Below, one piece after another: positions 17,521-56,068 of a stretch of 64,000 nt of DNA. The DNA is from Pseudomonadales bacterium (GTDB taxonomy: Bacteria; Patescibacteriota; Microgenomatia; UBA1400; PJMF01). The stretch is taken from the NCBI GenBank assembly GCA_020632265.1, contig JACKFW010000001.1, forward strand, positions 855,272 to 919,271, written 5' to 3'. Both the position numbers and the translations under genes were made by a program. Under the pieces are notes generated by a model. That model did no database searches and was not told where the DNA came from. It saw only the letters and a program-made list of their open reading frames with translations. Position 1 is the stretch's first letter, and every line of letters begins with the position of its first letter.

Positions 17521-19965
17521 ATGAACTTAGTAATTGTTGAATCACCTACGAAAGCTAGAAAATTAACGAAATACTTGGGTAGTGAGTATACAGTCGAAGC
17601 TTCAGTGGGTCATATTAGAGATCTTCCTAAATCGGGACTAAGTGTTGATGTTGAGCATGATTTTGAACCAACTTATGAAATTTCAAAAGACAAAATAAAA
17701 GTTGTCAGTAGATTAAGAGCATTAGCTAGTAAAGCTGAAAAAATTTATTTAGCAACTGATCCTGACCGTGAGGGAGAGGCTATTGGTTGGCATATTAAAT
17801 ATTTATTAGAGTCAGCTAAAGGTAAAAATAAAACCTCAGCAAAGTTTTTTAGAGCAACATTTCATGAAATTACCCAAAGTGCTGTTTTAAAAGCAATTGA
17901 AAACCCCGGTGAGTTAAATATTAATCTAATTGACGCTCAACAAGCTCGTAGAGTTGTGGATAGATTAGTTGGCTATAAATTATCTCCAGTTTTATGGAAA
18001 AAGGTTCGCCGAGGTCTTTCGGCAGGAAGAGTTCAATCTGTAGCGCTACGCTTAATTGTCGATCGTGAACGAGAGATTGAGGTTTTTATTCCAGAGGAGT
18101 ATTGGGAAATAGATGTTGCTATGAGCAAATTAAAACTTGGTAGCTCAAAAGTGTTTGATAAGGATCTAAAAGTTACGGAAAACCTGAATGATGAAATATT
18201 TATTGCAAGAGTTGTTGAAGTTGATGGCAATAAATATGATCCAAAAGTTGAAAAAGATGTTACTCCATTGGTGTCAATATTGCCAACAGCTGACTATGTA
18301 GTTGATTCAATAGAAAAGAAGGAGCGAAAACGCTCTAGTCAACCTCCGTTTACTACTTCAACAATGCAACAAAAAGCTGCAACTATGTTTGGTTATAGTG
18401 GCAAACAAACAATGAGATTAGCTCAGCAATTATATGAAGAGGGTTTAATCACTTATCATCGTACTGACTCTTTTAACCTTTCCAATTCTGCTGTTAGCAT
18501 GGCGAGAGATTTTATCTCAAAGGAATATGGAAATAAGTATCTACCATCAAAGCCAGTATTATTCTCAAATAAAAGCAAGAATGCTCAAGAAGCTCATGAA
18601 GCTATTCGTGTAACCCAAATTGAAATCCGAGCTAAAGATTTGCTGGCTAAAAGTGCAAAATTTAGTCCACAACATGTTAAGTTGTATGACCTAATATGGA
18701 GAAGATTTGTTGCGAGTCAAATGACCAATGGATTATATGATCAAACATCAGTAAAAATTAATTTTGTTAGTAATAAAAAGACCAGCGAAGTAAAAAAAGG
18801 AGTTCTTAAAACTTCTGGATCTGTATTAAAGTTTGATGGTTGGATGAAGTTATTCCCAAATAGGGAAGATTCATTGTTACCCGAACTTGCTGAAAAACAA
18901 GATTTGAATTATCTAGACCAAGCAGCTGCTCAAAAATTTACTCAACCTCCTGCCAGATATAACGATGCTTCATTAATAAAAGAGCTTGAGAAAAGAGGAG
19001 TTGGAAGACCAAGCACTTATGCCTCTATTATTTCTGTTATTATCGATCGGGGTTATATTGAGAGAATACAAAAAAAGTTTTTTGCATCAAATGTCGGTAT
19101 GACTGTAAGTGACTTTTTATTACAACATTTTCCTCAAGTAATGGATTATGAATTCACGGCAGAAATGGAGGAAGATTTAGATAGAATTTCTAGAGGTGAA
19201 AAACAATGGAGAAAAGTTGTTGGTGATTTTTATAAACCTCTAGAAAAGAAGATTGAGAATGTAACTGAGAAGGCTGAGAGAACTCAAATTCCTGTAGAAA
19301 AGACTGGAGAAAAATGTCCAGATTGTTCTGCTGAACATGGTGGTGAAATTGTTATTAGGTCTGGAAAATTTGGCAAGTTTATGAGTTGCAATCGTTTTCC
19401 AGAATGTAAATATACCAAAAACATTGTGGAAACAGTTGAAGATGTTGTTTGTCCTTTATGCCAAAAAGGCGAAGTTACAATGAAGAATACCAGATGGGGA
19501 AAGCCATTTTTCGGTTGTGGAAATTATCCAAAATGCAATTGGGCATCTTGGAAGAAGCCTGAAAAGGGCGAGGTAATGACAAAAGAAGAATGGAAAGTTC
19601 TTCAAGAGGCAAGAGAAGAGAGAAAGAAAAAATGGGCCGAAAGGAAAAGTGGAAAATCCACCACCGCGCTGTCAAAAAAAGCAATTAAACAGCCTAAAAA
19701 ACCCGCCAAATTTGTAAATAAACTTGCCGAAGTCGCAAACAAACCTGCTAAAGTCGCAAACAAACCTGCTAAAATTGCAAACAAACCTGCCAAAGATACG
19801 AAAGAACCTGATGGCGAAGTTGTAAAAATGCCGACTAAAGTCAAGAAAAGATCAACAAAAATTAAGAAAAAACCTACCAAAGTCGCAAACAAACCTGCTA
19901 AAGATATAAAAGAATCTGCTGGCGAAGTTGTAAAAAAAACTAAAACTAAGGCTACTAAAAAGTAA
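17521..19965 (+). CDS. topA: DNA topoisomerase I with C-terminal zinc-ribbon domains and a Lys-rich repetitive tail
   Basis: Toprim N-terminus (LVIVESPTKARKL, DPDREGE), catalytic-Tyr region (YHRTDS), several Cys4 ribbons (CPDC...C..C; CPLC...C..C), and a tail with KPAKVANKPAK repeats. Confidence 0.9.
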   Translation: MNLVIVESPTKARKLTKYLGSEYTVEASVGHIRDLPKSGLSVDVEHDFEPTYEISKDKIKVVSRLRALASKAEKIYLATDPDREGEAIGWHIKYLLESAKGKNKTSAKFFRATFHEITQSAVLKAIENPGELNINLIDAQQARRVVDRLVGYKLSPVLWKKVRRGLSAGRVQSVALRLIVDREREIEVFIPEEYWEIDVAMSKLKLGSSKVFDKDLKVTENLNDEIFIARVVEVDGNKYDPKVEKDVTPLVSILPTADYVVDSIEKKERKRSSQPPFTTSTMQQKAATMFGYSGKQTMRLAQQLYEEGLITYHRTDSFNLSNSAVSMARDFISKEYGNKYLPSKPVLFSNKSKNAQEAHEAIRVTQIEIRAKDLLAKSAKFSPQHVKLYDLIWRRFVASQMTNGLYDQTSVKINFVSNKKTSEVKKGVLKTSGSVLKFDGWMKLFPNREDSLLPELAEKQDLNYLDQAAAQKFTQPPARYNDASLIKELEKRGVGRPSTYASIISVIIDRGYIERIQKKFFASNVGMTVSDFLLQHFPQVMDYEFTAEMEEDLDRISRGEKQWRKVVGDFYKPLEKKIENVTEKAERTQIPVEKTGEKCPDCSAEHGGEIVIRSGKFGKFMSCNRFPECKYTKNIVETVEDVVCPLCQKGEVTMKNTRWGKPFFGCGNYPKCNWASWKKPEKGEVMTKEEWKVLQEAREERKKKWAERKSGKSTTALSKKAIKQPKKPAKFVNKLAEVANKPAKVANKPAKIANKPAKDTKEPDGEVVKMPTKVKKRSTKIKKKPTKVANKPAKDIKESAGEVVKKTKTKATKK
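19700..19945 (+). repeat. coding tandem repeat: 21-bp AAACCTGCTAAAGTCGCAAAC units plus a ~50-bp duplication, encoding the Lys/Ala/Pro-rich tail of TopA
   Basis: Direct repeats are visible in the nucleotide sequence at 19720-19800 and 19870-19940. Confidence 0.7.
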
Positions 19966-20013
19966 GTTTGCTAAGAATATTATAAGAAATTGTCAAAAAG
20001 TGGAAAAATTTTT

Positions 20014-20580
20014 ATGAATATTGCAATTTTTGGAGGCGCTTTTGATCCTCCACATCTTGGTCATAAATTCGTCGCAGATTCATTGATTGAAAAAAAAATT
20101 GTTGATGAAGTATGGTTTGTGCCAGTTTTTAAGCATCCTTGGGCCAATAGATATAATAAAAAACAGTTAGCACCTTACGATTCAAGAGTAGCAATGATAG
20201 GAATGTTTATTTCTGATCATCAAAAGATTGCTCATTTTAAAGACGTTAGCTTTACTTACGACACGCTCATATATTTTCAAAAAAAATTTCCTCAACATAC
20301 TTTTTCATGGGTGATGGGTACCGAATATCTTGGCCGTTTTGATGATTTTTTGGCAGGACATCCAAAACTTCTTGATTTTCATTTTTATATTTATCCAAGA
20401 GCAGGCTATCCTTTTGAAGAAAAATTGTTAAAGAAAAATATGACTTTTTTGGTAAATATGAAGGAAATAAGAGCATCTTCGACAGATATTAAAGCAAAGC
20501 TAAATGACGGCACCAACATTGAAAATTTAGTTTCCGCTGGAGTAAATCAATATATAAAAGCTAATAAATTATATATTTAG
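20014..20580 (+). CDS. nadD: nicotinate-nucleotide adenylyltransferase
   Basis: IAIFGGAFDPPHLGH (HxGH nucleotidyltransferase motif near the N-terminus). The ATG at 20014 gives the canonical NadD N-terminus. An in-frame ATG at 19990 would add 8 aa. Confidence 0.8.
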   Translation: MNIAIFGGAFDPPHLGHKFVADSLIEKKIVDEVWFVPVFKHPWANRYNKKQLAPYDSRVAMIGMFISDHQKIAHFKDVSFTYDTLIYFQKKFPQHTFSWVMGTEYLGRFDDFLAGHPKLLDFHFYIYPRAGYPFEEKLLKKNMTFLVNMKEIRASSTDIKAKLNDGTNIENLVSAGVNQYIKANKLYI

Positions 20581-20603: not shown

Positions 20604-21479
20604 ATGAAAAAAACAATTGATTCGCAATACAAAAGATTACTTAAAGAAATTCTTGAAAATGGAGTTTTGACTAAGACCCAACAAGAAGTTGACGCTTTAA
20701 CTTTGATGGCCCCTCAGCCTTTAAAGTTTAAACTTAAAAATGGTTTCCCAATTATTACAGAAAGAAAAATTAGTAAAAAAATTTGGGGACAGGCTATTGG
20801 TGAAATAATTGGTTTCATTAATGGTGCCAGAACACAAGATGAATTGTCAAAATATGGTTGTAGATGGTGGAATTCTTGGGTTACTGAATCCAAGTGTAAA
20901 AAAAGAGGTTTGGAAACGGGAGATATGGGTCCAGGTAGTTATGGAGCAGCATTTCATGATTTTCCAACGTCAGAAGGTCCAACTTACAATCAATTTAAAA
21001 ATATTATTGAGCAAATTAAGGAAAAGCCACACTTGAGAACTCATTTTATTTCTCCTTGGATTCCTCAGTACACGATAAGGGGCAAGGGGAAGCAACAACA
21101 AGTAGTCGTATGTCCATGCCATGGTTGGGTTCATATTCGAATTATCGATAATAAACTTACATTACACATGTTTCAAAGAAGTAGTGACACTCCAATCGGA
21201 TTGCCAGCAAACTTAGCTCAGTATGCAGCTCTGACTATGATGATTGCGCAGGCGACTGGTTATGAAGCATATGAATACATTCATAGTTTTTCTGATGCGC
21301 ATATTTATGTTGATCAAATAGAACATGTAAAAACCATCTTGAAAAGGGCAGACAAAACTTTGCCCACAATGAAGTTGAATTCAGCAAATCAAGATATTTT
21401 TAAATTTAGGGTAGATGATTTTGAGCTCACAGATTATGATCCACATCCAGGTATATGGGATATTCCGGTAGCAATATAG
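20604..21479 (+). CDS. thyA: thymidylate synthase (ThyA family)
   Basis: Catalytic-Cys region VCPCHGWVHIRI (ThyA: APCHAFFQFYV). QRSSDTPIGLPANLAQYAALTMMIAQ matches [26 protein letters not shown]. C-terminus YDPHPGIWDIPVAI matches YDPHPGIKAPVAI. Confidence 0.85.
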   Translation: MKKTIDSQYKRLLKEILENGVLTKTQQEVDALTLMAPQPLKFKLKNGFPIITERKISKKIWGQAIGEIIGFINGARTQDELSKYGCRWWNSWVTESKCKKRGLETGDMGPGSYGAAFHDFPTSEGPTYNQFKNIIEQIKEKPHLRTHFISPWIPQYTIRGKGKQQQVVVCPCHGWVHIRIIDNKLTLHMFQRSSDTPIGLPANLAQYAALTMMIAQATGYEAYEYIHSFSDAHIYVDQIEHVKTILKRADKTLPTMKLNSANQDIFKFRVDDFELTDYDPHPGIWDIPVAI

Positions 21480-21498
21480 ATTTGAAAATATATCTATT

Positions 21499-21957
21499 AT
21501 GAGAAGAAAAACAATGTCTAATTATGTAGATATCGATAACACTAGAGAAGATGAGCAAAAAAAGGTTATGGAAGAGATTATCCTCGCAGATCACTGTCCT
21601 TTTTGTGAGGAAAATCTAAGTAAATATCATAAAAATCGATTCATTAAGGAAGGTAAACACTGGATTTTAACTAAGAATCGGTGGCCTTATGAACATACGA
21701 AAGTTCATTTGCTTTTAATTTATAAAAAACATGCGACTCATCTAAATGAATTGGATTCTAAGGCTGGTAAGGAATTATTAGATTTTGTTAAATGGGCCGA
21801 ACAAAAATATCATATTGCTGGCGGTGGTTGGGCTATGCGTTTTGGAGACACAAATTATTCAGCCGGAACAGTAAATCATATTCATGTGCAGTTTATACAG
21901 CCTGACCTTAATTCCCCAAATTACAAACCAGTTAGAATTAAATTAGGCAAAGGTTGA
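21499..21957 (+). CDS. HIT-superfamily protein of the GalT-like branch (HxHxQ, CxxC zinc motif), putative nucleotidyl transferase/phosphorylase
   Basis: CPFCEEN near the N-terminus and HIHVQFI (an HxHxQ triad variant). Confidence 0.55.
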   Translation: MRRKTMSNYVDIDNTREDEQKKVMEEIILADHCPFCEENLSKYHKNRFIKEGKHWILTKNRWPYEHTKVHLLLIYKKHATHLNELDSKAGKELLDFVKWAEQKYHIAGGGWAMRFGDTNYSAGTVNHIHVQFIQPDLNSPNYKPVRIKLGKG

Positions 21958-22100
21958 TCGAAAGTAAACAAGTCCACTTGGTTAGAATTAAACTAGGCAA
22001 AGGTTGATCGAAAGTAAACAAGTCCACTTGGTTAGAATTAAACTAGGCAAAGGTTGATCGAAAGTAAACAAGTCCACTTGGTTAGAATTAAACTAGGCCG
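21931..22100 (+). repeat. 50-bp tandem repeat, about 3.4 copies, beginning inside the 3' end of the HIT gene and re-copying its TGA stop
   Basis: GTTAGAATTAAAYTAGGCAAAGGTTGATCGAAAGTAAACAAGTCCACTTG recurs at 21931, 21981 and 22031, with a partial copy at 22081. Confidence 0.9.
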
Positions 22101-22197
22101 CTTAGAATGGAATTAAGTTAGGGTCGATAGAGAAATTATGATAACTTTGGTTAAAATTAAGTCGATAATTGGTTATCAGAGTTAATTTCAATTAAGA

Positions 22198-23094
22198 TTA
22201 AGTAGTAATTTTGATAATTTCGACACCAGATTTCTTAAGCAATTCTTCTCCATCAGTCATTGAGTAACCTTCGTAGTAGAATAATTTTGAGATACCACTG
22301 CATGCGACTAATTTTGCGCAAGGTGGACAGGGAAAAGTTGTGACATAAATTTCTGATTTATTTAAGGTTATGCCATTTTTTGCTGCGTTTGCAATTAAAG
22401 CAGCTTCAGCGTGTATCGCGGTAGATATCTCAATATTTTTTCCTTTATGAAAGCTATTTCTAGGATCACTATCGATATAAGGTGTGTAAGGAGAGGGTAG
22501 ATGTGTATTGTGGGCAATGGAAATAATTTTATTATCTTTAAGCAAAACTGCTCCCACTTGACGCCACCAATCAGAGCTTAGTTCTGCTTGTGTTTTTGCA
22601 ATCGAGATAATTCTTTTGGAAAATCCAGCTAAAGAAAGTGATTCAGATGGAACAATCTTTTGTTTCTCAACACTGTTAAATCGATTCCATCTTAAAAAAG
22701 TTCGATCAAATTTTATATTTTCATTTGATAAATATTTTTCAGCAAGCCAGAAAAAAATATCTTCTTTTGGAAGCACGAATTTGACGTTTTTTTTATTCAT
22801 TTTGATCAATTTGTTTAATGAAAGAAGTTTAATTTCCCTTTTGGGTAAAATTGCTTTGAGTGCAAGGTTTGCTTGTTTAGGACTAAGAGAGCGAATTTCT
22901 TTTCTTAAATAGTCGAACTCTTTGTCAATGACATTTATTAATGAAGTATTTATGATGAAAATTTCACTCGATGGGTATTTGTTTAAAAATTTAAAATATC
23001 CTTTATGAATTACGGGTAAATAGATAAGGATTTTTGATTTCATAATAATACATCTATTTTTTATTAGTTTTATATTTGATTGTTTGAAATTCAA
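22198..23094 (-). CDS. dCMP/cytidine deaminase-family protein with an N-terminal extension of about 150 aa
   Basis: Zinc-binding deaminase motifs HAEAALIANA and PCPPCAKLV in the C-terminal half. Confidence 0.7.
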   Translation of the reverse strand: MNFKQSNIKLIKNRCIIMKSKILIYLPVIHKGYFKFLNKYPSSEIFIINTSLINVIDKEFDYLRKEIRSLSPKQANLALKAILPKREIKLLSLNKLIKMNKKNVKFVLPKEDIFFWLAEKYLSNENIKFDRTFLRWNRFNSVEKQKIVPSESLSLAGFSKRIISIAKTQAELSSDWWRQVGAVLLKDNKIISIAHNTHLPSPYTPYIDSDPRNSFHKGKNIEISTAIHAEAALIANAAKNGITLNKSEIYVTTFPCPPCAKLVACSGISKLFYYEGYSMTDGEELLKKSGVEIIKITT

Positions 23095-23099
23095 GAATA

Positions 23100-23654
23100 T
23101 TATTCTTTTAGTTCATCTAATATTTTTTCCATGGTATGAATTAATCTATTTGATATGGTTTTGGTGATTCTTTTTTCGGCACCAATTTGTACCAATCTGA
23201 TTTTGGCACTTGTTGATGTGGTAGCTTTTCTTTCTAATATTTCTACTTTGCCACAATATTTAGCTAGTTTTTCAAGCTGTTCTTGATTATATGTTTCTTT
23301 AATTGCTATCAAAACGTCTGGTCTAATAAGTTTGATTAGTTTCCATTTAGGCAGGTTCAGTTCTTTAATAATTACATGATCTACATCTTCAATATAGGTT
23401 AGCATTTCAAGACGTTCATTTTCAGGCACAACAGGTCTGTCTGGTCCTTTTCTTTTTCTAATTTTTTTATCACTATCAATACCAACGATTAGTATGTCAC
23501 CAAATTTTTTAGCTTCACAAAGATAGCGACAATGTCCTATATGCAACATGTCAAAAGATCCTGAAGTTAAAACAATTTTTTTACCAGCATTTTTATACTT
23601 TTTTACCAAAGATTCAATTGCCTCATAAGTAGTAATTTTGTATCCATTTTTCAT
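23100..23654 (-). CDS. cytidylyltransferase-like (HxGH) nucleotidyltransferase
   Basis: LTSGSFDMLHIGH close to the N-terminus (class-I-like HIGH fold, as in TagD, RfaE-II and FMN adenylyltransferase). Size 184 aa. Confidence 0.6.
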   Translation of the reverse strand: MKNGYKITTYEAIESLVKKYKNAGKKIVLTSGSFDMLHIGHCRYLCEAKKFGDILIVGIDSDKKIRKRKGPDRPVVPENERLEMLTYIEDVDHVIIKELNLPKWKLIKLIRPDVLIAIKETYNQEQLEKLAKYCGKVEILERKATTSTSAKIRLVQIGAEKRITKTISNRLIHTMEKILDELKE

Positions 23655-23707
23655 TTCTATAGCATCCTACTATATGTTTGTGTGTTGTGCTACTATGGTT
23701 GCAAGAT

Positions 23708-24214
23708 ATGAAAGTAATTCTAATGGCAGCTATAACAGTTGATGGTTACATCGGATTAACCGATAATCATCTTTCAACAAAATGGACATCCAAAGAGGAC
23801 GCTATTTTTTTTAGATCATTTTCGCGTGAGGTAGGTAATTTAGTTGTTGGCTCTAAAACTTTTAAGACTTTTAATAGAAAAATTGAAGGTAGAAAATTTT
23901 TTGTCTATTCAAATCAAGATTCAATTGAGAATTTATTTGATAATGAAATCGAGGTTGTTCATGAATCTCCAGTAGATTTAGTGAATAGATTGGAATCTCA
24001 GGGTTTTGAGAAAATTTTGATTGCAGGTGGAACAAGTGTTTATACTCAATTTATGCAGGCTAAAGTAGTAAATGAATTGTATATTACTGTTGAGCCTCAG
24101 GTATTTGGCAACGGGCAGAAACTATTTAATGCTAGTATAGAACAAAAACTGCTTCTAATTGAAATAATCAATTTATCAGATCAAACCAAAGTGTTGCATT
24201 ATAAAGTTATTTAG
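23708..24214 (+). CDS. dihydrofolate reductase-family protein (DHFR / RibD C-terminal fold)
   Basis: MKVILMAAITVDGYIG...SKEDAIFFRSF...GSKTF parallels the DHFR N-terminal beta-alpha-beta (MISLIAAL..VIG...DLAWFKRNT..GRHTW). A start at 23708 is preferred over the upstream in-frame ATG at 23678. Confidence 0.6.
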   Translation: MKVILMAAITVDGYIGLTDNHLSTKWTSKEDAIFFRSFSREVGNLVVGSKTFKTFNRKIEGRKFFVYSNQDSIENLFDNEIEVVHESPVDLVNRLESQGFEKILIAGGTSVYTQFMQAKVVNELYITVEPQVFGNGQKLFNASIEQKLLLIEIINLSDQTKVLHYKVI

Positions 24215-24302
24215 ATTATTTAGCTAACTTTATTATAATATAAGTTTTGAGCTCAAATTTAATCCAAATTATGATAAAAAAATTTAATCATTAAAAATAA
24301 AC

Positions 24303-24749
24303 ATGTCTGAAAATAAAATAAAATTAGTAATGAAGCTCTTCGATAAATCTTTGCCAAAGCCAGAGTATAAAACTAAGGGAGCAGCGGCAATCGATTTGTA
24401 TGCCAGAGTTGAAACAAAAGTACCAAAAAAAGCCATCGGATATATTCCGCTAAATATTGCGTTGCAGTTGCCAGAAAATCATTGGGCACTTTTATCAGCA
24501 AGAAGTTCGTTACACAAGAGGGGGTTGATGCTTGCAAATGGAATTGGAGTAGGTGATTATGATTATCGTGGTCCAAATGATGAATATCTAGCAGCTGTTT
24601 ACAATTTTACTGACGAAGATGTAATAATTGAAAAAGCGGAGCGGGTGATACAACTAATCGTCATGCATCGCGAACCTGTTAGGGTAATTATTACAGATAA
24701 TTTTGAAGATCCCGACAGAGGTGGTTTTGGTTCAACTGGGAAAAAATAA
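24303..24749 (+). CDS. dut: dUTP diphosphatase
   Basis: dUTPase motifs AAAIDLYA, ARSSL...GL and GVGDYDYRG. Size 148 aa. Confidence 0.8.
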   Translation: MSENKIKLVMKLFDKSLPKPEYKTKGAAAIDLYARVETKVPKKAIGYIPLNIALQLPENHWALLSARSSLHKRGLMLANGIGVGDYDYRGPNDEYLAAVYNFTDEDVIIEKAERVIQLIVMHREPVRVIITDNFEDPDRGGFGSTGKK

Positions 24750-24976
24750 TAATCAAATTTATTTTAACTGTTGCTTTTTTGTAAAACTTTTGCAATTCAT
24801 TAGCAATCATTTTTTACTCAGTTTCACTAATTCAATTAATATGTCAGTTTGAAAGTAATTTACATATTTTTTTTATATACACGATGTTGATTTTTACCTA
24901 TTGCATGTACACAATATATTGTGTTTTAGTTAAGTTTGTTGTGTTAAGAAATACGAATTCTTAATTTAGGAAAAAA

Positions 24977-25960
24977 ATGAGTGAAACTTCTTCAGTCGAG
25001 ATTAGTGATTTTATAAGAATTGAAGGTTGTAAAAATCCTCAACCTCTTTCAACTAAGAATTTAGAATTCTGGAATTATAATCCACCCGATCAAGTTGTTT
25101 TTGCAACTGGTAGCATTAGAAAAGCAATAATGCTTATTTGTCAAATTAATAATTTTTCTTTTGATGTTATAAAAAATGGGAAATTAATAAGTATAACTAA
25201 TCCTTTAGAATTACTCGGATATTTTAATGAGAATGTATACAATGGAAATGGCTCGGTAAAAAAGAAAACATTTTTAGGATATTTATTTGGAGTAGAATTA
25301 TATATACATCCTGGAGATGGAGAATCTGATTCAAATGTATCACCGGCTGATGAGGCTAAAAAAAAGGCCTTATTTTTGTACCAAGATCCAGAATTAGGAT
25401 ATCAGGGCCAAAACATTCTAATTTTTGGTTCAGATACTGTTGATTTACCGTCTTCGGCTGAAGAACCAATGGGAAAGCCAGAAAATGAAAAGGGTAACAA
25501 TCATCCATTTCCGCAATCACAAGATTTTGATAATGATGCTGATTATCAATCTGCAATAAGATTATACCTAGAAGAATGGAAAATGAGATTTTATACTTTT
25601 AGTGAGGTAATTATACACACAAATGCAATTGCAATTTTAGACTCACTTACTGGAGTTTTTATGGATTTGGAAGATAAAGCAAATTTGATATTAACATTAT
25701 TTGTAGATAGCCAAAAAATGAAAAATGCAATCCCTTATCAGGATATGGCAGGAGGTGGTATATTTCAACAATTAATTGACTGGGGAGACATTGATGCTAT
25801 TAAAGCATATTTTGATGACGCATCGTATAAATTAATTGAAAACCAGTCAAACGAGATTATTGCAATGGCACTTATGTGTCAAATCATGGGATGTCCTCAT
25901 GCTATTATTGAGTTACTTAGAATTGCAAATATAATGAGAAATACAAAAGAAGAAGTATAA
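24977..25960 (+). CDS. hypothetical protein whose N-terminal region is weakly Maf/ITPase-like (nucleotide pyrophosphatase fold)
   Basis: VVFATGSIRKAIML resembles the (S/T)GSxR(R/K) N-terminal motif of Maf/Ham1. ILIFGSDTVDL resembles Maf GADTIV. The C-terminal ~130 aa is unassigned. Confidence 0.35.
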   Translation: MSETSSVEISDFIRIEGCKNPQPLSTKNLEFWNYNPPDQVVFATGSIRKAIMLICQINNFSFDVIKNGKLISITNPLELLGYFNENVYNGNGSVKKKTFLGYLFGVELYIHPGDGESDSNVSPADEAKKKALFLYQDPELGYQGQNILIFGSDTVDLPSSAEEPMGKPENEKGNNHPFPQSQDFDNDADYQSAIRLYLEEWKMRFYTFSEVIIHTNAIAILDSLTGVFMDLEDKANLILTLFVDSQKMKNAIPYQDMAGGGIFQQLIDWGDIDAIKAYFDDASYKLIENQSNEIIAMALMCQIMGCPHAIIELLRIANIMRNTKEEV

Positions 25961-26200
25961 TTCAAAGTTGATAGAGCAGAAGTAAAACCACAAATTTTAC
26001 GAACAAACAGAAGATCTCCTAATTAATTATATTAATCAACATCGCTTCGCTCGTTCGTTAATGAGTCGCAACTAAAGTTGTTGTATTCCTATTCGTTTCA
26101 CAATATCATTTAATAGCAACTATACAAAAATGTACTTTTAAAAAAATGTTTTCTGTCGTACACTTCGTATAGAACGCAGCCCATTGGAAAGTAGACAAAT

Positions 26201-26836
26201 ATGACAGAAAATAAAGGTTTCTTAATTACACTTGAGGGCGGTGAGGGTGGTGGTAAAACTACTCAAATAGTGAGGTTACAAAACCGATTGCATAAAGCTG
26301 GGAAAGACATTGTGGTTTTAAGAGAACCCGGTGGCACAGTAATTAGCGAACAAATTCGCGAAGTTGTTTTGTCTGCCAAAAATGTTGGAATTTCATTTAC
26401 TACTGAAGTTCTACTATTTCAGGCCGCAAGAGCCCAGATTTATAGAGAAATTGTTTTGCCTTCACTAGAGGCTGGAAAAGTTGTTGTTATGGATCGGTCA
26501 AGAGATAGCTCAGTTGTTTATCAAGGTATGGTGAGGGGTTTCGGTGTAGACATGATCGAAAAACTAAATGAAATTTCTACCAAAAATACTTATCCGGATT
26601 TGACATTTTTACTAGATATTTCTGTAGATAAAGGTTTGAAGAGAAGAGAAGATTCAGGCTCGGTAAATCGAATTGATATGGAAGCTACTAATTTTCACAC
26701 CAAGGTTAGAGAAGCATACTTGAAACTTGCAAAAGAAGATCAGTCTGATCGCTGGCAAGTGATTGATGCTTCAAAAACTATCGAAGAAGTTGAAAATTCT
26801 ATGTGGGAGATTATTTCGAAAAAACTTGGAATTTAG
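26201..26836 (+). CDS. tmk: thymidylate kinase
   Basis: P-loop LITLEGGEGGGKTTQ, DR(S) motif and the typical lid region. Size 211 aa. Confidence 0.85.
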   Translation: MTENKGFLITLEGGEGGGKTTQIVRLQNRLHKAGKDIVVLREPGGTVISEQIREVVLSAKNVGISFTTEVLLFQAARAQIYREIVLPSLEAGKVVVMDRSRDSSVVYQGMVRGFGVDMIEKLNEISTKNTYPDLTFLLDISVDKGLKRREDSGSVNRIDMEATNFHTKVREAYLKLAKEDQSDRWQVIDASKTIEEVENSMWEIISKKLGI

Positions 26837-26900
26837 TTTAGAATTTATCCTGAATTTAGTTTTTTCATTCAAAAATTGAAAAATACACACCGATATTCAT

Positions 26901-27911
26901 TTATTCAAATCTAGGTTTTGTAGAGTCGAGTGGGTCTGTTGCAATTATTGTGCTGGGGCCATCCTTATCTGAGCGAGAAAGTTGAGTTTTATCATCTACT
27001 TTAGTTTCACCAATTTCTATTGTAGATTGAGCAAATGTTTGATAAAGTGTTCGAGCAAGAAGTCCATCTGCGACGTTTCTCTTAGAAAGATTAAACTCAG
27101 CTTTTAACATTGTTAGCCTACTTATAAGCACTTGGTTACATAATATATTTACTAAGGCAGCAAAGTTCGATGCAGTTTTCTTTGTTAATTGAGGGATTTG
27201 GTCGCTTGTAAGCATTTCAACAATTAATTGGTTTTCTTTTTCAAAGTCATTCTTTCCGCCATTTTTAAACATTCTGTGATGATATTTTGCTATGGCAACT
27301 GCCATTGCTTGTTCATGTGTGTAGCCAAGAGATATAGCTAATTGATTAAACCATAGAATATATGTTTCTTTAAAATCGGGGTCGGTTTCAGTTAGCTGAA
27401 TTAAATTATAAAAAACATCAGCAATTTCTGATATTACTTTTGCAATAGCTGCATTGTCTTCGTTAGTCTTACCATCTGTATAATCTGAGATGGCACCGAT
27501 CACCTCATCTCTTTCAGGAGGTTTGAAATATTCGGCGGGCTTAGTACGAACCGGATCGCCTGTGAATTGAAAGATAAATCTCAAATCATTAGTCTTACCA
27601 TCACCTGAAAGAAAAAGGATCTTGGTTTCAGCTCGAAATGGTAACTTTGTTCCATATAGTTTAGCTTCTTCTTGCAGAAATTCAGTTGTCAGTAATCTCC
27701 ATCCAATTTTTTCATTTGGCTTAAGATTTAACTCTTGTGAGTCATTAGTGAGAACAATTTCAATAACTCTTTGCGTTGATTGTGCTTTAATTAAGCGAGT
27801 TGTTTCTATTCCTGCGGCATGAAAAGTATCTAGGGCCTTTTGTAAAGTCATCATTGTGGTAGCAGCTAATAAGTGCTCCAAACTTATATTTAGTGTATCT
27901 TCATTTACCAT
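26901..27911 (-). CDS. hypothetical protein with a C-terminal MazG-like all-alpha NTP-pyrophosphohydrolase-like region
   Basis: EDNAAIAKVISEIADVFYNLIQL...FKETYILWFNQLAISLGYTHEQAMAVAIAKYHHR resembles the MazG EExGD..fyL..LA..GxdlE core. The N-terminal 150 aa is unassigned. Confidence 0.35.
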   Translation of the reverse strand: MVNEDTLNISLEHLLAATTMMTLQKALDTFHAAGIETTRLIKAQSTQRVIEIVLTNDSQELNLKPNEKIGWRLLTTEFLQEEAKLYGTKLPFRAETKILFLSGDGKTNDLRFIFQFTGDPVRTKPAEYFKPPERDEVIGAISDYTDGKTNEDNAAIAKVISEIADVFYNLIQLTETDPDFKETYILWFNQLAISLGYTHEQAMAVAIAKYHHRMFKNGGKNDFEKENQLIVEMLTSDQIPQLTKKTASNFAALVNILCNQVLISRLTMLKAEFNLSKRNVADGLLARTLYQTFAQSTIEIGETKVDDKTQLSRSDKDGPSTIIATDPLDSTKPRFE

Positions 27912-28913: not shown

Positions 28914-29243
28914 ATGACAGTAATAGTTGAGTCAAAGAAGATGAGGGTAACCAACGCAATCAGGTTATTTGCTGAAAAACAAGCACTTAAAATTAGTAAA
29001 TTGGGTAAGAGTGTTTTGGAAATTAAAATCCATCTAGAAAAAATTCGTAAAAAGAAAATGGATGAAAACTCAAATATTGTCACATATTTTGTATCAACTC
29101 CAGGAAAAAATATTATTGTGAAGAGTAAATCAGCTGATATGTATAAAGCAATTATTGAAGCTACATCTAGCGCAGTGAGAAAACTAAGAAAAATAAATGA
29201 GAAGCGCAAAACAATAAAAAGATCATCAAAAATATTCCAATAG
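28914..29243 (+). CDS. hpf: ribosome hibernation-promoting factor / RaiA family protein
   Basis: RaiA fold signature: ITGKN..E..A.R..V..K..KL (here VTNAIRLFAEKQALKISKL) and C-terminal DMYAAID-like DMYKAIIEA. Strong AGGAGG ribosome-binding site 8 nt upstream. Confidence 0.6.
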   Translation: MTVIVESKKMRVTNAIRLFAEKQALKISKLGKSVLEIKIHLEKIRKKKMDENSNIVTYFVSTPGKNIIVKSKSADMYKAIIEATSSAVRKLRKINEKRKTIKRSSKIFQ

Positions 29244-29353: not shown

Positions 29354-29719
29354 ATGTCGGATGATAAAAAAAATCCTTTAGACGTTCTAGAAGAATTATT
29401 GAAAGATACTGGTAATGGGGCAGTTTCAGGATCTGGAAGTAATAATTCTGATCCTAGCAAGCCAGTGGAAAAAACTAAAGAGGAACTCGAGCGTGAACTT
29501 GAACAAAAGAGAATTGAGTTTGAACAAAGTCAAGAAGAACAAAAAAGAATCGATGATCAAAAACTTATAAAACAAAGGCAGGCAATTAGTGGTATTCAGG
29601 ATTCACAAGAGTATAAGGCAAGAGTGCAGCAAGATTCTGCAAAAAAGGATGATGAGGAAAAACAGACTGTTGCATCAGATGGTTTTGAAATTGATCAATT
29701 AGGTCATAAAAAGGTTTAA
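29354..29719 (+). CDS. hypothetical low-complexity (E/K/Q-rich) protein
   Basis: Intact ORF with charged, coiled-coil-like composition. Confidence 0.35.
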   Translation: MSDDKKNPLDVLEELLKDTGNGAVSGSGSNNSDPSKPVEKTKEELERELEQKRIEFEQSQEEQKRIDDQKLIKQRQAISGIQDSQEYKARVQQDSAKKDDEEKQTVASDGFEIDQLGHKKV

Positions 29720-30358
29720 ATGTTTGGTACAGTTCCAGGCTCTGGTGGTCCACAAGGTGGGGGAGCTTCACTTTCTAATTTTGGCGAGTCTTTTCAAGAT
29801 GGAAATTCATTGATGCAGAATGTAAAAAATCAAAGTTCTTCTAAAGGTAATAATTCTAGTGGTACTAATCAGAATAACCTTGGTAATAGTTTACATTCGT
29901 CAGCTTCTTCACAAAATCCAGTTCCCCAAAAACCTCAGATAGAACCTCGTGAAGTAGGTAGTTTGGCAGATGAAGCAAAAAGAGGAGTTGAAGATGTTTG
30001 GACTGAAGTTAAACAATTTTTTTCTATTAATACTTGGTTGGGAATCGATCCTGAAAATATGAATCCTCAACAACAGGCCGAAGCAAAAGAGATTCATGCA
30101 AGATATACACAACTTGATCAAAAGCAACAAGCAATTGCTAAACAGATGTACGAAGAAAGAATGCAAAAAAAGAAACTTATCGAACAAGAGGAACAGCAAC
30201 GAAAGCAAATTGAAGCTCAAAAGCAACAAGAGCAAGCTTATTCGATACCTTCGGGACCTCAAAAGGGGGCGGGCGCACAAAAAGGCAATAAAAAACAACA
30301 GATGATTCATAAGATTAAGCAAGACAGAACAACTTTAAATAATACTCAAGGAGAGTAG
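29720..30358 (+). CDS. hypothetical low-complexity (G/S/N/Q-rich N-terminus, Q/E/K-rich C-terminus) protein
   Basis: Intact ORF that starts at the stop of the previous ORF. Confidence 0.35.
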   Translation: MFGTVPGSGGPQGGGASLSNFGESFQDGNSLMQNVKNQSSSKGNNSSGTNQNNLGNSLHSSASSQNPVPQKPQIEPREVGSLADEAKRGVEDVWTEVKQFFSINTWLGIDPENMNPQQQAEAKEIHARYTQLDQKQQAIAKQMYEERMQKKKLIEQEEQQRKQIEAQKQQEQAYSIPSGPQKGAGAQKGNKKQQMIHKIKQDRTTLNNTQGE

Positions 30359-32142: not shown

Positions 32143-35112
32143 ATGTTTTCTTTTCATAAAAATAACACTCCCAACTTTTCAAGTGATGATGATAATTTTC
32201 AGTTGATCAATAAAACTTCAGATCATGTTGATGATTTGCAGTTTCATGATAAATCTAATACTAAATCTAAAATCAAATCTAGTAAAAAACAAATGGTGGT
32301 TTTTTTGAGTATTTTTGTTTTTTCATTAATGAGTTTGGCAGTATTGGTAGCATTTAATCGTCAACAATATAATTATGATTCTAGAAAAGAAGCTGCATGT
32401 AATCTTTCAGTTTCAAAGTGGATGCCTATAGAAATAAGTTTCTCGGGTCCTGAACTTAGTGAAACATCTACATCGCCCAATAATCCTTTTCTTGACTATC
32501 GATTAAATGTTAAATTTATAAGTCCAACTGGCAAAGAAATCAATGTTCCAGGTTTTTTTGATGGAGATGGATCTGGTTCTGGAGTTGGCAACAAATGGAA
32601 GGTTCGCTTTTCTCCAAGCGAAGAGGGTTCTTGGACGTATGTGGCCGATCTTAGAAGTGGGAGTAATATTGCAGTTGATACAAATTTATCAAGTGGAAAT
32701 TCTCAATCAATTGTTCCAGATTGTCAAAATTCTTTTTCTGTTGGTGCATTAAATTCATCCGCTCCAGGATTCTTCAAGTGGGGAAGACTAGAATATGTTG
32801 GAAAACATTATCCAAAATTTGCTAATGGTCCTTACTTTATTAAGATTGGAACTGATTCTCCAGAAAATATGTTGGGTTTTGTAGGATTTGATAATACAGT
32901 TGATCAAGGTGGCTTAGTACCTAACTTTCTTCACACTTTCGCACCTCACGCTGAAGATTGGCAACAAGGTAATCCAACATTTGGCAGTAATCCCGAATTG
33001 TCAAAAAATATCATTGGAGCACTAAACTATTTGAGTAACAGTGGTATTAATTCAATCTACTTTTTACCAATGAATCTTGGAGGAGATGGTCAGGATACTT
33101 ATCCTTTTGTTGACGCGAATATTGCAAATAATAAAAATTACGATGTTAGTAAGCTTAATCAATGGAACATTGTTTTACAACACGCTCAAAAGAAAGGAAT
33201 TGCGCTTAACGTTGTTCTTTCAGAAACAGAGGATCAAAATACTGATTGGTTGGGAGGAATTTCTTCTCTCACAATTGAGAGAAAATTATATTTAAGAGAA
33301 TTGATTGCTCGATTTGGATATTTGCCTGCAATTCAGTGGAATATTGGCGAAGAAAGTAAATTTCCACAAAGTACTACTGAAGCCATTGCTGATTACCTCA
33401 CCGCGTTGGATTGGCAAAATCACCAAATTACATATCATACTCCTAAAGATGGTATTGGAGTATACAACTGGGCTTATGGTAATCCAAAATTTGATGCTAC
33501 TTCCGTTCAATATACATTCTTAGAAGGTATTAAAAATAGCGAATTTGTTGAAATTCTTCGAGCAAATAGTGCTCAAGCCAATCGTCCTTGGATTGTCAAT
33601 ATGGATGAAAATTTTGGTGGATTAGTTCATAACCCAGGTCATTATCGACTTAGTCGATTGTATGACATTTTATTTTCTGGAGGAGGAGTTGAGTGGTATT
33701 TTGGATGCACCAGTCCTTGTGAAGATGTTACTGCCGAAAATTTCGACACTCCTGAATTAAGAGAACTTTGGGCATATAACAAAGTGGCGCATGACTTTAT
33801 GCAAAACAATCTTCCTTTTTGGGATATGATTCCTCTCGACGATGTGGTGGGAGGTGAACTTGAACATGAAACTTATGGTGGTGCTGAAGTATTTGCTCTT
33901 CCTGGTCAAGTTTATGCAATTTATTTTGCCTCATCCAATACAACTGGAACAATTGATTTAAGAAATGTTAGTGGTCAATTTACTAAGCAATGGTTTAATC
34001 CCGTTAATGGTCAGACAGTAGGACCTCAAGAAATTGTAAATGCAGGTGCTTATGTTAATAATGGCACTGCTCCCAATCCTTTAGCAGATTGGATATTGTT
34101 GTACAAAAAAACTGATTTTACTTTGCCTCCTCCTATTAGCACTAATACTGATCCAGTCTGCAATCAACTTTGTGATGCTTCACAAACCTGTGAGCAAGGA
34201 TTGGAATGCAAGCCATTGTCATGGGTTTGGCAATACTTGAGCACAGAAGAAGAACTTTTTTCAGGAATTTCAATTGCAGGCAAAGAAATTAAATCATTTG
34301 ATGTTTATTATCATAATCGAGACAATGAAATTCGTCAGAATGCAATTATTGATTCGACGGTTTATTATCGCACCAATCGAGATTGGATTTGGAGATCAAT
34401 TGGATCTGTCGATCAAGTTTTTGCAGGAGCAGGTTCTGGAGAAGTTACGCTCTTTGATGTAGCCTATTACCGAGAAGCTAATCAAGTTATTCAGCATATT
34501 ATAAGATCAAATCGTTTATACAAAAGAACCTCTTTAGATTGGAATACCTGGGAAGATTTGGGTAATATCAATGATATTTTCCCTGGATCAGGTCCTCTTG
34601 AAGGATTTGACACCTTCCAACATCCTAATGGAGAAATACGTCAGCATGTAATCAGGGGTAATAGAGCGTATCGCAGAACTCTTCCGGGAAATAACTGGGA
34701 AGACCTAGGAGATTATAACGAAGTCTTTAGAGGTACTGGAAACGGTGAAATTATATCTTTCGATGTTCACAGTCCTAGCGGAAATTCTGAAGTGATTCAG
34801 CAAGTATTACGTGGTGGTTTGGTATGGAAAAGAAATAGTAAAGAAGAATCCCGATGCAGATTACCTTCACAACCTGCAACAACAAATTGTTTACCGATAC
34901 CAAATGGTGGCCAAACTATGAATCCTCAAAATAATAACAATAACGCCGTTGCTTCACCAGCTACTGCAACACCAACGCCTACGGTAAATGCTAAACCTGC
35001 TTCACCAGCTACTGCAACACCAACGCCTACGGTAAATGCTAAACCTGCTTCACCAGCTACTGCAACACCAACGCCTACGCCGGTTATTAGTCAAGACAGA
35101 ATGAGTCTATAA
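32143..35112 (+). CDS. large surface/secreted protein: N-terminal TM anchor, glycoside-hydrolase-like (DUF4038/GH5-clan-like) domain, four ~48-aa lectin/propeller-like repeats, Pro/Thr-rich repetitive tail
   Basis: TM VVFLSIFVFSLMSLAVLVAF. Four repeats of the form EIRQNAIIDSTVYYRTNRDWIWRSIGSVDQVFAGAGSGEVTLFDV. C-terminal ASPATATPTPTVNAKP appears three times. Confidence 0.55.
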   Translation: MFSFHKNNTPNFSSDDDNFQLINKTSDHVDDLQFHDKSNTKSKIKSSKKQMVVFLSIFVFSLMSLAVLVAFNRQQYNYDSRKEAACNLSVSKWMPIEISFSGPELSETSTSPNNPFLDYRLNVKFISPTGKEINVPGFFDGDGSGSGVGNKWKVRFSPSEEGSWTYVADLRSGSNIAVDTNLSSGNSQSIVPDCQNSFSVGALNSSAPGFFKWGRLEYVGKHYPKFANGPYFIKIGTDSPENMLGFVGFDNTVDQGGLVPNFLHTFAPHAEDWQQGNPTFGSNPELSKNIIGALNYLSNSGINSIYFLPMNLGGDGQDTYPFVDANIANNKNYDVSKLNQWNIVLQHAQKKGIALNVVLSETEDQNTDWLGGISSLTIERKLYLRELIARFGYLPAIQWNIGEESKFPQSTTEAIADYLTALDWQNHQITYHTPKDGIGVYNWAYGNPKFDATSVQYTFLEGIKNSEFVEILRANSAQANRPWIVNMDENFGGLVHNPGHYRLSRLYDILFSGGGVEWYFGCTSPCEDVTAENFDTPELRELWAYNKVAHDFMQNNLPFWDMIPLDDVVGGELEHETYGGAEVFALPGQVYAIYFASSNTTGTIDLRNVSGQFTKQWFNPVNGQTVGPQEIVNAGAYVNNGTAPNPLADWILLYKKTDFTLPPPISTNTDPVCNQLCDASQTCEQGLECKPLSWVWQYLSTEEELFSGISIAGKEIKSFDVYYHNRDNEIRQNAIIDSTVYYRTNRDWIWRSIGSVDQVFAGAGSGEVTLFDVAYYREANQVIQHIIRSNRLYKRTSLDWNTWEDLGNINDIFPGSGPLEGFDTFQHPNGEIRQHVIRGNRAYRRTLPGNNWEDLGDYNEVFRGTGNGEIISFDVHSPSGNSEVIQQVLRGGLVWKRNSKEESRCRLPSQPATTNCLPIPNGGQTMNPQNNNNNAVASPATATPTPTVNAKPASPATATPTPTVNAKPASPATATPTPTPVISQDRMSL
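34945..35095 (+). repeat. 48-bp coding tandem repeat (3 copies) encoding the A/T/P-rich linker
   Basis: GCTTCACCAGCTACTGCAACACCAACGCCTACGGTAAATGCTAAACCT appears three times. Confidence 0.85.
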
Positions 35113-55982: not shown

Positions 55983-56068
55983 GCCGAGGTGGCGGAACGG
56001 TAGACGCGTGGGTCTCAAAAACCCATGAGGGTAACCTCGTGAGGGTTCGATTCCCTCTCTCGGCACCA
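55983..56068 (+). tRNA. tRNA-Leu (anticodon CAA), type II with a long variable arm and encoded CCA
   Basis: Acceptor stem GCCGAGG/CTCTCGGC. D-arm GGCGGAACGGTAGACGC. Anticodon stem-loop TGGGT-CTCAAAA-ACCCA. Variable arm TGAGGGTAACCTCGTG. T-arm GAGGGTTCGATTCCCTC. Discriminator A followed by CCA. Confidence 0.85.

Follow-up and report, generated by a model that had tools for sequence, protein, structure and literature searches.

A fixed four-gene module of Patescibacteria joins a divergent thyA gene to genes for a HIT-family protein, a two-domain dCMP deaminase and a nucleotidyltransferase

Thymidylate synthesis ranks with the most conserved and best-studied pathways, and thymidylate synthase (TS; ThyA, EC 2.1.1.45) is among the most conserved enzymes. 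Asn177 confers uracil specificity on TS, whereas Asp occupies this position in dCMP hydroxymethylase (T4 gp42), and the TS C-terminus closes the active site for hydride transfer. TS and dihydrofolate reductase (DHFR) are physically coupled in thyA-folA operons and in the DHFR-TS proteins of protozoa and plants, in which dihydrofolate (DHF) is recycled, and ThyA-family enzymes are clustered with nucleotide-handling enzymes in phage hypermodification clusters. The present study concerns a cluster of nine genes in a 64,000-nucleotide stretch (the window; positions 855,272 to 919,271 of contig JACKFW010000001.1) of a metagenome-assembled genome. Four of these genes encode a ThyA, a HIT-family protein, a dCMP deaminase with an additional N-terminal domain (N-domain) and a cytidylyltransferase-family nucleotidyltransferase (NT). 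They form a fixed module of Patescibacteria, which was present in every related locus long enough to hold it. In our best reading of the cluster, which we hold with moderate confidence, canonical synthesis (dCMP to dUMP to dTMP to dTDP) is combined with an uncharacterised nucleotidyl-transfer sub-module.

The nine open reading frames (ORFs), separated by short spacers, occupy window positions 20604-27911 (7.3 kb). Gene assignments were based on Pfam and NCBIfam searches and on comparison with the PDB, and were clear for six of the nine: ThyA, the dCMP deaminase domain, NT, DHFR, Dut and Tmk. Tmk scored 170 bits against TIGR00041, exceeding the cut-off, and Dut scored 88.7 bits against the NCBIfam dut model, under its cut-off of 102.55. 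A preliminary description, made from the sequence alone, had proposed a compact cluster for dTMP synthesis and nucleotide sanitation, and the assignments support dTMP synthesis with dUTP/NTP sanitation. The ORF scan located its nine genes in 7.3 kb as described, and the Pfam and NCBIfam results agree with its naming of thyA, a dCMP deaminase with an N-terminal extension (150 aa in that description, approximately 135 aa here), a nucleotidyltransferase, DHFR, dut and tmk. The cluster proteins were deposited as MCB9813576-83, on a contig of 1,082,363 bp, under the label 'Pseudomonadales bacterium'. Since the nearest relatives all belong to Patescibacteria (Pacebacteria, Woesebacteria, Paceibacterota and others), this label is wrong; by gene content and nearest relatives, the genome is a member of Patescibacteria (candidate phyla radiation [CPR], Microgenomates-like). 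Many related third-party annotation assemblies have been deposited as 'uncultured Pseudomonadales/Saccharibacteria'.

The module has the arrangement thyA> HIT> <(N-domain-dCMP deaminase) <NT. In the window, the HIT gene lies 19 bp downstream of thyA, the NT gene is directly upstream of the deaminase gene on the same strand, and the NT and DHFR genes are divergently oriented. Order and orientation were identical in 110 of the 110 related loci holding all four genes, with varying flanks, and the clustering is far beyond chance. A ThyA-centred tblastn scan with the window proteins, restricted to one genome per GTDB species, covered 66 loci, of which 63 contained HIT, 61 the deaminase gene (dcd) and 60 NT; the majority of the misses lay at contig ends. 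The remaining genes of the cluster were found less often: 37 loci contained DHFR, 33 had dut no more than 10 kb from thyA, 25 contained tmk, 13 gene 7 and only 4 gene 9. Flanking dprA and topA were kept in only 23. In the reverse test, a metagenome scan was seeded with the deaminase N-domain and yielded 80 loci. Both thyA and HIT were present in all 36 of these with at least 3.5 kb of downstream sequence, and NT in all 64 with at least 700 bp of upstream sequence. No locus long enough contained a ThyA of this clade without HIT, NT and the N-domain deaminase. The preliminary description had connected the HIT gene, the nucleotidyltransferase gene and the deaminase extension with thyA, and had asked whether relatives carry them elsewhere; in the loci scanned they are linked to thyA, and the linkage is stricter than the window by itself could reveal. 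Its remark that such clustering is unusual for a bacterial chromosome applies to bacteria in general; however, clustering is the rule in Patescibacteria. Our literature searches, which extended to CPR thymidylate metabolism and to links between HIT and DHFR and had subscription journals outside their scope, returned no description of the module.

Gene fusions and duplications were also observed. DHFR was present in 97 of 116 related loci in two forms. The RibD_C-like form, located beyond NT, is that of the window, while a FolA-type form lay between thyA and HIT in 26 loci, as a separate gene in 21 and fused to HIT in 5. These five in-frame DHFR-HIT fusions are directly downstream of thyA (L062, L082, L110, L113 and L118), and Pfam identified DHFR_1 and HIT in the L062 ORF. 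The module therefore resembles thyA-folA operons and DHFR-TS in its coupling of TS and DHFR; however, DHFR is fused to HIT and not to TS, and two types of DHFR occupy different positions in different lineages. In 18 genome loci, a second HIT paralogue (approximately 190-210 aa, with CxxC and HxHx(N/H) motifs) separates HIT from the deaminase; the window lacks it and has a spacer of 240 bp at this place. One protein-library entry of 469 aa (P0249) combines NT, the N-domain and the deaminase in a single polypeptide, which could be either a genuine fusion or an artefact of gene calling; no in-frame NT-deaminase fusion was detected in 136 loci holding both genes. The module is adjoined by Tmk and Dut in many genomes. 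It was also found in a complete genome labelled 'candidate division TM6 bacterium GW2011_GWF2_28_16' (CP011212.1), the ThyA of which is 76% identical to that of the window. Either the taxonomic label of this genome is at fault, or a large block was transferred horizontally. In this genome, dprA, topA, nadD, dhfr, dut, tmk and recR are neighbours of the module.

The accessory genes may be unrelated housekeeping genes that remain neighbours of thyA and dcd only through shared ancestry or horizontal transfer of the block as a cassette. For example, NT may produce a CDP- or ADP-activated precursor of the envelope or a cofactor, and HIT may be a general Hint/Ap4A hydrolase. We consider this explanation unlikely, but worth some weight. 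NT resembles RfaE-II, ECT and TagD of envelope pathways, HIT proteins are ubiquitous housekeeping enzymes, the TM6-labelled genome carries the block, and the transfer of thyA into Patescibacteria has been reported (PMC12455944). However, the 110 loci retain one order and orientation at identities to the window ThyA down to approximately 42-53%, the surrounding synteny decays, and conditional linkage is 100% in both directions. Furthermore, DHFR-HIT fusions are recurrent, one NT-deaminase fusion was found, and the N-domain occurred only on proteins of deaminase length or shorter among the best 150 of its 604 family members. The invariance and fusions make hitch-hiking less likely.

The window ThyA matched PF00303 (E 4e-66, 223 bits) and exceeded the cut-off of TIGR03284 (190 bits against 108); it scored below the narrower PRK01827 equivalogs. 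We aligned it and 34 other members of its clade (35 sequences) with Escherichia coli ThyA, and with 6auj from the PDB. The numbering of the E. coli sequence is consistent: its length is 264 aa, and C146 and the remaining key positions fall where expected. E58, W80, W83, Y94, C146, H147, Q165, R166, S167, D169, N177, D205 and H207 were invariant in all 35 sequences. K48 is replaced by R, and position 209 is Y or F. C172 and H173 of the window CPCH motif align with C146 and H147 in 35/35, and N203 corresponds to N177; Asn was also present in all 80 metagenome loci where this region was covered. The C-terminus reads PVA(I/V), with I in 29 sequences and V in 6, and the window protein ends in DIPVAI. 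Therefore, the residues for reductive methylation, on which the preliminary description had made its choice of pathway depend, are retained.

The phosphate site differs from that of other TS. Four arginines, R21, R126', R127' and R166, bind the dUMP phosphate (PMC6005164), and these are only partly kept in the clade: R166 does not vary, position 126' holds R or K, Q takes the place of R21 in 32 of the 35 sequences, and T that of R127' in all 35. The RTGTGT loop is QQEVDAL in the window ThyA (SQQ(E/G)VDA(L/I)T in the clade) and SRR is LRT, confirming the atypical active-site surround and the loss of the N-terminal loop noted in the preliminary description. LRT or LKT, together with the absence of RTGTGT, was found in all 80 further loci. 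YGAAFHDF replaces YGKQWRAW, and two insertions are conserved. The first follows W83 and reads TExKCKKRGLE (TESKCKKRGLE in the window), and the second precedes CPCH and reads IPQYTIRGKGKQQQ in the window ThyA, with the conserved clade form IPQYTIRGKGKQQK. The same features persist to 42% identity in the 80 further loci. The closest precedent is the 'VAAP' TS of Vibrio, in which R127' is naturally replaced by Gly; the enzyme is active with a raised Km, and its authors regarded it as the first case in nature in which any of the four arginines is missing (PMC6005164). Mutagenesis cited in the same study indicates that the position equivalent to R127' tolerates substitution. The clade ThyA shares with ThyA enzymes, including the VAAP clade, the PF00303 fold, the catalytic Cys, N177, E58, Y94, W80/W83, R166, R126', H207 and PVAI. 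However, it lacks two arginines whereas VAAP lacks one, carries the two insertions, and invariably occurs with HIT, NT and the N-domain deaminase. Since the catalytic set is kept, R21 and R127' are absent and VAAP offers a precedent, we consider the clade ThyA, as judged from these alignments, to be, very probably, a genuine reductive TS in which the phosphate site is unusually remodelled.

The preliminary description had raised a pyrimidine-modification pathway as an alternative, in which the ThyA homologue would hydroxymethylate dUMP or dCMP and the hydroxymethyl base would be decorated by HIT and NT. The inventory is superficially similar to phage clusters of ThyA-family enzymes and transferases, and the phosphate loop is atypical. 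However, position 177 is Asn and not Asp, and PVAI, Y94, E58 and W80 are kept. A DHFR, for which there is a need only where DHF is formed, accompanies the module and in some loci is even fused to HIT. The best PDB matches (the best 60 distinct of 122) are named thymidylate synthase or viral ORF70 chains, and the four PHROG families matched are all thymidylate synthase. Phage 'pyrimidine hmase' appeared only at 26% identity to ThyA, and no phage homologue of more than 37% identity was present among phage records. The nine genes were found to include no glycosyltransferase, other group-transferase, amidotransferase or hydroxymethyl-dNMP kinase. In contrast to the phage clusters, the module belongs to cellular chromosomes and extends across the clade. 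The TS signature, the linkage to DHFR, a set of nine genes in which no decorating enzyme was found, and the missing phage connection together make hypermodification very improbable.

The deaminase was annotated as a product of 281 aa. An alternative TTG at 23094 gives 298 aa and is probably not the start. The zinc motifs HAE and PCPPC are present, with H211, E213, C239 and C242 invariant, and PDB profile searches matched 4p9c, 1vq2 and 2hvv (E 1e-20 to 1e-23). The enzyme therefore shares the HxE and PCxxC core of dCMP deaminases (T4 Cd, S-TIM5, the S. mutans ComEB type and human DCTD) and is closest to the phage and bacterial ones. The allosteric motif for dCTP/dTTP in dCMP deaminases is G(Y/W)N(A/G) (PMC12088426); the corresponding site reads AHNT in the window and AHNx in the family. 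Vertebrate CDADC1 likewise has an extra N-terminal domain and a degenerate or unused allosteric site. However, the N-domain in the present case is predicted to be Rossmann-like and is not a second deaminase domain. A confident AlphaFold2 model built from a 56-sequence alignment (predicted local distance difference test score, 89; 88 for the N-domain) placed a five-stranded Rossmann-like N-domain before the deaminase, and the N-domain modelled alone gave the same fold. Foldseek of the full model returned dCMP-deaminase matches, covering the deaminase domain only.

P10, H13, G15, K48, R51, F116, L117 and R118 are invariant in the N-domain, and Y8, V11, Y16, E94, D95 and W119 nearly so, within the motifs YxPVxHxGY and FLRW. 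The N-domain had no Pfam match up to E 10, no PDB sequence match in a profile search and no significant PDB fold match in Foldseek (best E 0.036, methyltransferases and eIF2B). Foldseek against the viral structure library BFVD gave sub-threshold matches only, and the best-superposing of these were 'cytidyltransferase-like' (TMq 0.47-0.55, E 0.04-0.3). The alignment program hhalign placed the invariant PV(L/I)HxGY on the HIGH motif of NT with a probability of 0.7%. A profile search run exhaustively over 1.84 billion representatives retrieved 604 family members at E <=0.001; most of the best 150 were 260-330 aa (fused to the deaminase), and approximately 50 were shorter. The N-domain weakly resembles HxGH nucleotidyltransferases and is possibly a degenerate nucleotide-binding domain of that type.

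The deaminase domain also matched the NCBIfam model 'anti-phage dCTP deaminase' (NF041025) and PADLOC dCTPase models, as would be expected if the cluster were an anti-phage nucleotide-depletion system composed of a dCTP-deaminase-type defence enzyme and accessory NTPases. However, these matches cover only approximately 75-80 residues (320-401 of 437 in NF041025; 430-504 of 630 in PADLOC), that is, the shared deaminase core, and the NF041025 score of 74 bits is far below the cut-off of 400. The protein lacks the kinase-like N-terminal domain that the defence enzyme has, the other module proteins had no PADLOC match, and the module is clade-wide housekeeping and not a variable island. PADLOC called no defence system, and we regard a defence role as extremely improbable.

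NT matched PF01467 (E 8e-18) and contains the motifs GSFDMLHIGH, RKGPDRP and TTSTSAKIR, with invariant columns at H37, G39, H40, R67, K68, G69, T145, T147 and R152. Its PDB profile matches were ECT (3elb), HldC (5x9q) and TagD (1coz). It shares the HxGH, RKGP-type and (T/S)TS..IR motifs, the fold, and the predicted chemistry of joining an NMP to a phospho-acceptor with the release of pyrophosphate with RfaE/HldE domain II, ECT/CCT, TagD and archaeal RibL/PPAT. However, it scored below every NCBIfam equivalog cut-off (116.8 bits against 181.5 for rfaE_dom_II, TIGR02199), and its partners, the deaminase, ThyA and HIT, are unlike those of any characterised PF01467 member.

HIT is a single domain of approximately 150 aa. 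It exceeded the PF01230 cut-off narrowly (22.2 bits against 21.5, E 2e-4), and the preliminary assignment to the HIT family is retained. The GalT branch conserves HxHxQ. The accompanying label of GalT-like is unjustified because the third triad residue is equally Q or H (position 131; 30 and 30 of 60 orthologues); as judged from sequence, HIT is not specifically GalT-like. The two-half-domain architecture of GalT is absent, and PDB profile searches gave weak Hint/Fhit matches only (best E 2e-5), with GalT chains at E 0.4. CPFC, H127 and H129 are invariant, and homologues in the Joint Genome Institute data bear KEGG Orthology-based names of ATP adenylyltransferase or Ap4A hydrolase. The CxxC and triad, with invariant first and second His, are shared with the HIT superfamily (Hint, Fhit, Ap4A phosphorylase/ATP adenylyltransferase and GalT), in which the triad is HxHxH/Q and its second His is the nucleophile. 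However, similarity to any solved HIT protein is very weak, a conserved N-terminal helix with the pattern N-x-R-x-x-x-Q-x-x-x-M precedes CPFC, and the gene is fused to DHFR in some genomes and duplicated in others.

Genes 7 and 9 are peripheral and lineage-restricted. Gene 7, which the preliminary description called Maf-like, carries the motifs ATGSxRK, GETxxN..EAxxKA, DTVD and LGKP. These align to RdgB and Maf signatures in hhalign; however, the probabilities were 9% and 5%, and there was no Pfam match up to E 10 and no PDB profile match. Its family consists of 17 homologues, all hypothetical and from Patescibacteria only, and its motifs tentatively suggest a remote Maf/ITPase-like (HAM1) NTP pyrophosphatase. 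Gene 9 was described as MazG-like, and its E132xxE135-25-E161xxD164 signature, invariant in 5/5 sequences, fits the MazG-type ExxE(12-28)ExxD. However, it had no Pfam match up to E 10, and hhalign placed its first ExxE on LEETYEV of E. coli MazG with a probability below 1%. We tentatively suggest that its product may be an all-alpha NTP pyrophosphohydrolase extended at the N-terminus. Thus, among the five extra proteins of the preliminary description, profile searches assigned NT and, weakly, HIT, whereas the N-domain and genes 7 and 9 had no Pfam match.

The features of the cluster and its surroundings are summarized in Table 1. The chromosomal setting is ordinary: genes for MreB/MreC/PBP2, DprA, TopA and NadD are upstream of the cluster, those for RecR, CysS, GlmS, YchF and a formyltransferase are elsewhere in the window, and GC content is uniform (29%-36%). 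The nadD gene is directly upstream of thyA. With tblastn, it was detected no more than 10 kb from thyA in 20 of the 66 genome loci but not in the four loci with the closest ThyA (L001-L004); it is outside the invariant core. The C-terminus of TopA is unlike that of canonical TopA. Two low-complexity ORFs (121 and 212 aa) are located between cysS and a 109-aa ORF that is itself downstream of recR; recognisable counterparts occurred in 9 and 13 of the 66 loci. DUF5060 (residues 90-168) was the sole Pfam match of a 989-aa protein, and a tRNA-Leu gene was the only Rfam or ARAGORN match in the 64 kb. Rfam identified no RNA elements in the cluster, and a promoter and terminator scan revealed no enrichment relative to shuffles.

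Table 1. Positions of cluster genes, neighbouring features and variants in related loci (window coordinates unless a locus is given).
Feature	Position	Strand	Basis or remark
ThyA, Patescibacteria-specific clade, 291 aa	20604-21479	+	PF00303, TIGR03284
Divergent HIT-family protein, 152 aa	21499-21957	+	PF01230, weak
N-domain + dCMP deaminase, 281 aa, MCB9813578.1	22198-23043	-	PF00383
dCMP-deaminase domain	22198-22638	-	PF00383, HAE + PCxxC zinc motifs
Deaminase N-terminal domain, ~135 aa	22639-23043	-	AlphaFold2 model, alignment
Cytidylyltransferase-family nucleotidyltransferase (NT), 184 aa	23100-23654	-	PF01467, HIGH motif
DHFR (RibD_C/DHFR_1-like), 168 aa	23708-24214	+	Pfam, NCBIfam, PGAP name dihydrofolate reductase
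Trimeric-type dUTPase (dut)	24303-24749	+	PF00692
Gene 7, 327-aa protein	24977-25960	+	No Pfam hit; motifs only
dTMP kinase (tmk)	26201-26836	+	TIGR00041
Gene 9, 336-aa protein	26901-27911	-	No Pfam hit; ExxE/ExxD signature
TopA	17521-19965	+	
TopA C-terminus	19400-19965	+	Lysine-rich tail, repeated (V/I)ANKPAK units
nadD, another HxGH nucleotidyltransferase gene	19990-20580	+	
109-aa ORF	28914-29243		
Two neighbouring Q/E/K/S-rich ORFs	29354-30358	+	Low complexity
989-aa protein	32143-35112	+	DUF5060
tRNA-Leu(CAA)	55983-56068	+	Rfam or ARAGORN
DHFR-HIT in-frame fusion, FolA-type	L062:10864-11835		DHFR_1 + HIT (Pfam)
Second HIT paralogue	L017-L023, L027-L033, L043-L047, L051-L054, L066; e.g. 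L017:11366-12129		Between HIT and deaminase

In the reading of canonical synthesis with a nucleotidyl-transfer sub-module, the zinc deaminase would convert dCMP to dUMP, ThyA would methylate dUMP to dTMP in a folate-dependent and reductive manner, DHFR would recycle DHF to tetrahydrofolate, and Tmk would convert dTMP to dTDP. The evidence for these canonical steps is good. Removal of dUTP and unwanted NTPs from the pool would fall to Dut, probably together with the Maf/ITPase-like and MazG-like proteins. Three parts are non-canonical: HIT as a putative nucleotide hydrolase or phosphorylase, NT as a putative NTP:phospho-acceptor enzyme, and the Rossmann-like, possibly NT-derived domain of the deaminase. 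CCT, ECT, TagD, RibL, PPAT and NMNAT form NMP-P-X compounds, and Fhit, Apa and GalT cleave or transfer them. From the families to which they belong, we infer that NT and HIT may act on the nucleotide feed by forming and then cleaving an NMP-phosphoanhydride, for example in a conversion of (d)CTP to dCMP. The N-domain may bind a nucleotide as a sensor or regulator, replacing the degenerate canonical allosteric site. The analysis establishes the gene identities, the catalytic residues of ThyA, the deaminase and NT, the linkage and the fusions, whereas the substrates of HIT and NT and the role of the N-domain are proposals.

Several points weigh against this reading. A single MazG- or Maf-type pyrophosphatase would yield dCMP from dCTP, and a two-step feed through NT and HIT is unparsimonious. 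NT lies below all NCBIfam equivalog cut-offs, the substrates proposed for it and for HIT are putative, and the likeness of the N-domain to nucleotidyltransferases is below statistical significance. Moreover, two of the four phosphate-binding arginines are missing in every module-linked ThyA, and the true substrate could be other than free dUMP.

The last point leads to another explanation, carrier-linked thymidylate synthesis, in which the substrate of the module would be a deoxypyrimidine nucleotide conjugated at its 5' end and not free dCMP or dUMP. NT would couple (d)CTP, or ATP and dCMP, to a phospho-acceptor to form dCMP-P-X. The deaminase, with its N-domain holding X or the nucleotide handle, would convert this to dUMP-P-X, and ThyA, with its remodelled pocket, would produce dTMP-P-X. 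Hydrolysis by HIT would then release dTMP, or phosphorolysis dTDP, and the carrier would be regenerated. If true, uracil deoxynucleotides would be sequestered from kinases and DNA polymerase along a previously unknown route to dTMP/dTDP, and the lost arginines of ThyA and the gain of a nucleotide-binding-type domain by the deaminase would be accounted for. The chemistries of the NT and HIT families both centre on NMP-phosphoanhydrides, every linked ThyA lacks R21 and R127' and has two conserved basic insertions, and the additional domain present on every deaminase possibly binds nucleotides. The strict co-occurrence of the four genes, the DHFR-HIT and NT-deaminase fusions and the second HIT paralogue in 18 loci also speak for this route. 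However, there is no precedent for a TS or dCMP deaminase acting on conjugated nucleotides, the loss of R127' alone fits ordinary TS activity (PMC6005164), and the clade insertions may simply replace the lost arginines. Tmk and Dut beside the module in many genomes imply free dTMP and dUTP. The route is drawn entirely from gene content, and we consider it quite improbable.

The present study revealed that Patescibacteria/CPR, which make up a large share of bacterial diversity, possess a ThyA with a remodelled substrate-phosphate site that is locked to three uncharacterised nucleotidyl-transfer-type parts. The module is a conserved, uncharacterised extension of a textbook pathway. It provides new testable families, namely, the deaminase N-domain and the HIT and NT subfamilies, and a genomic marker module for CPR nucleotide metabolism. 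All of the components are small soluble proteins, and the question may be tested in vitro. At most, the module would represent a new way to feed, regulate or channel deoxypyrimidine conversion in organisms dependent on scavenged nucleotides.

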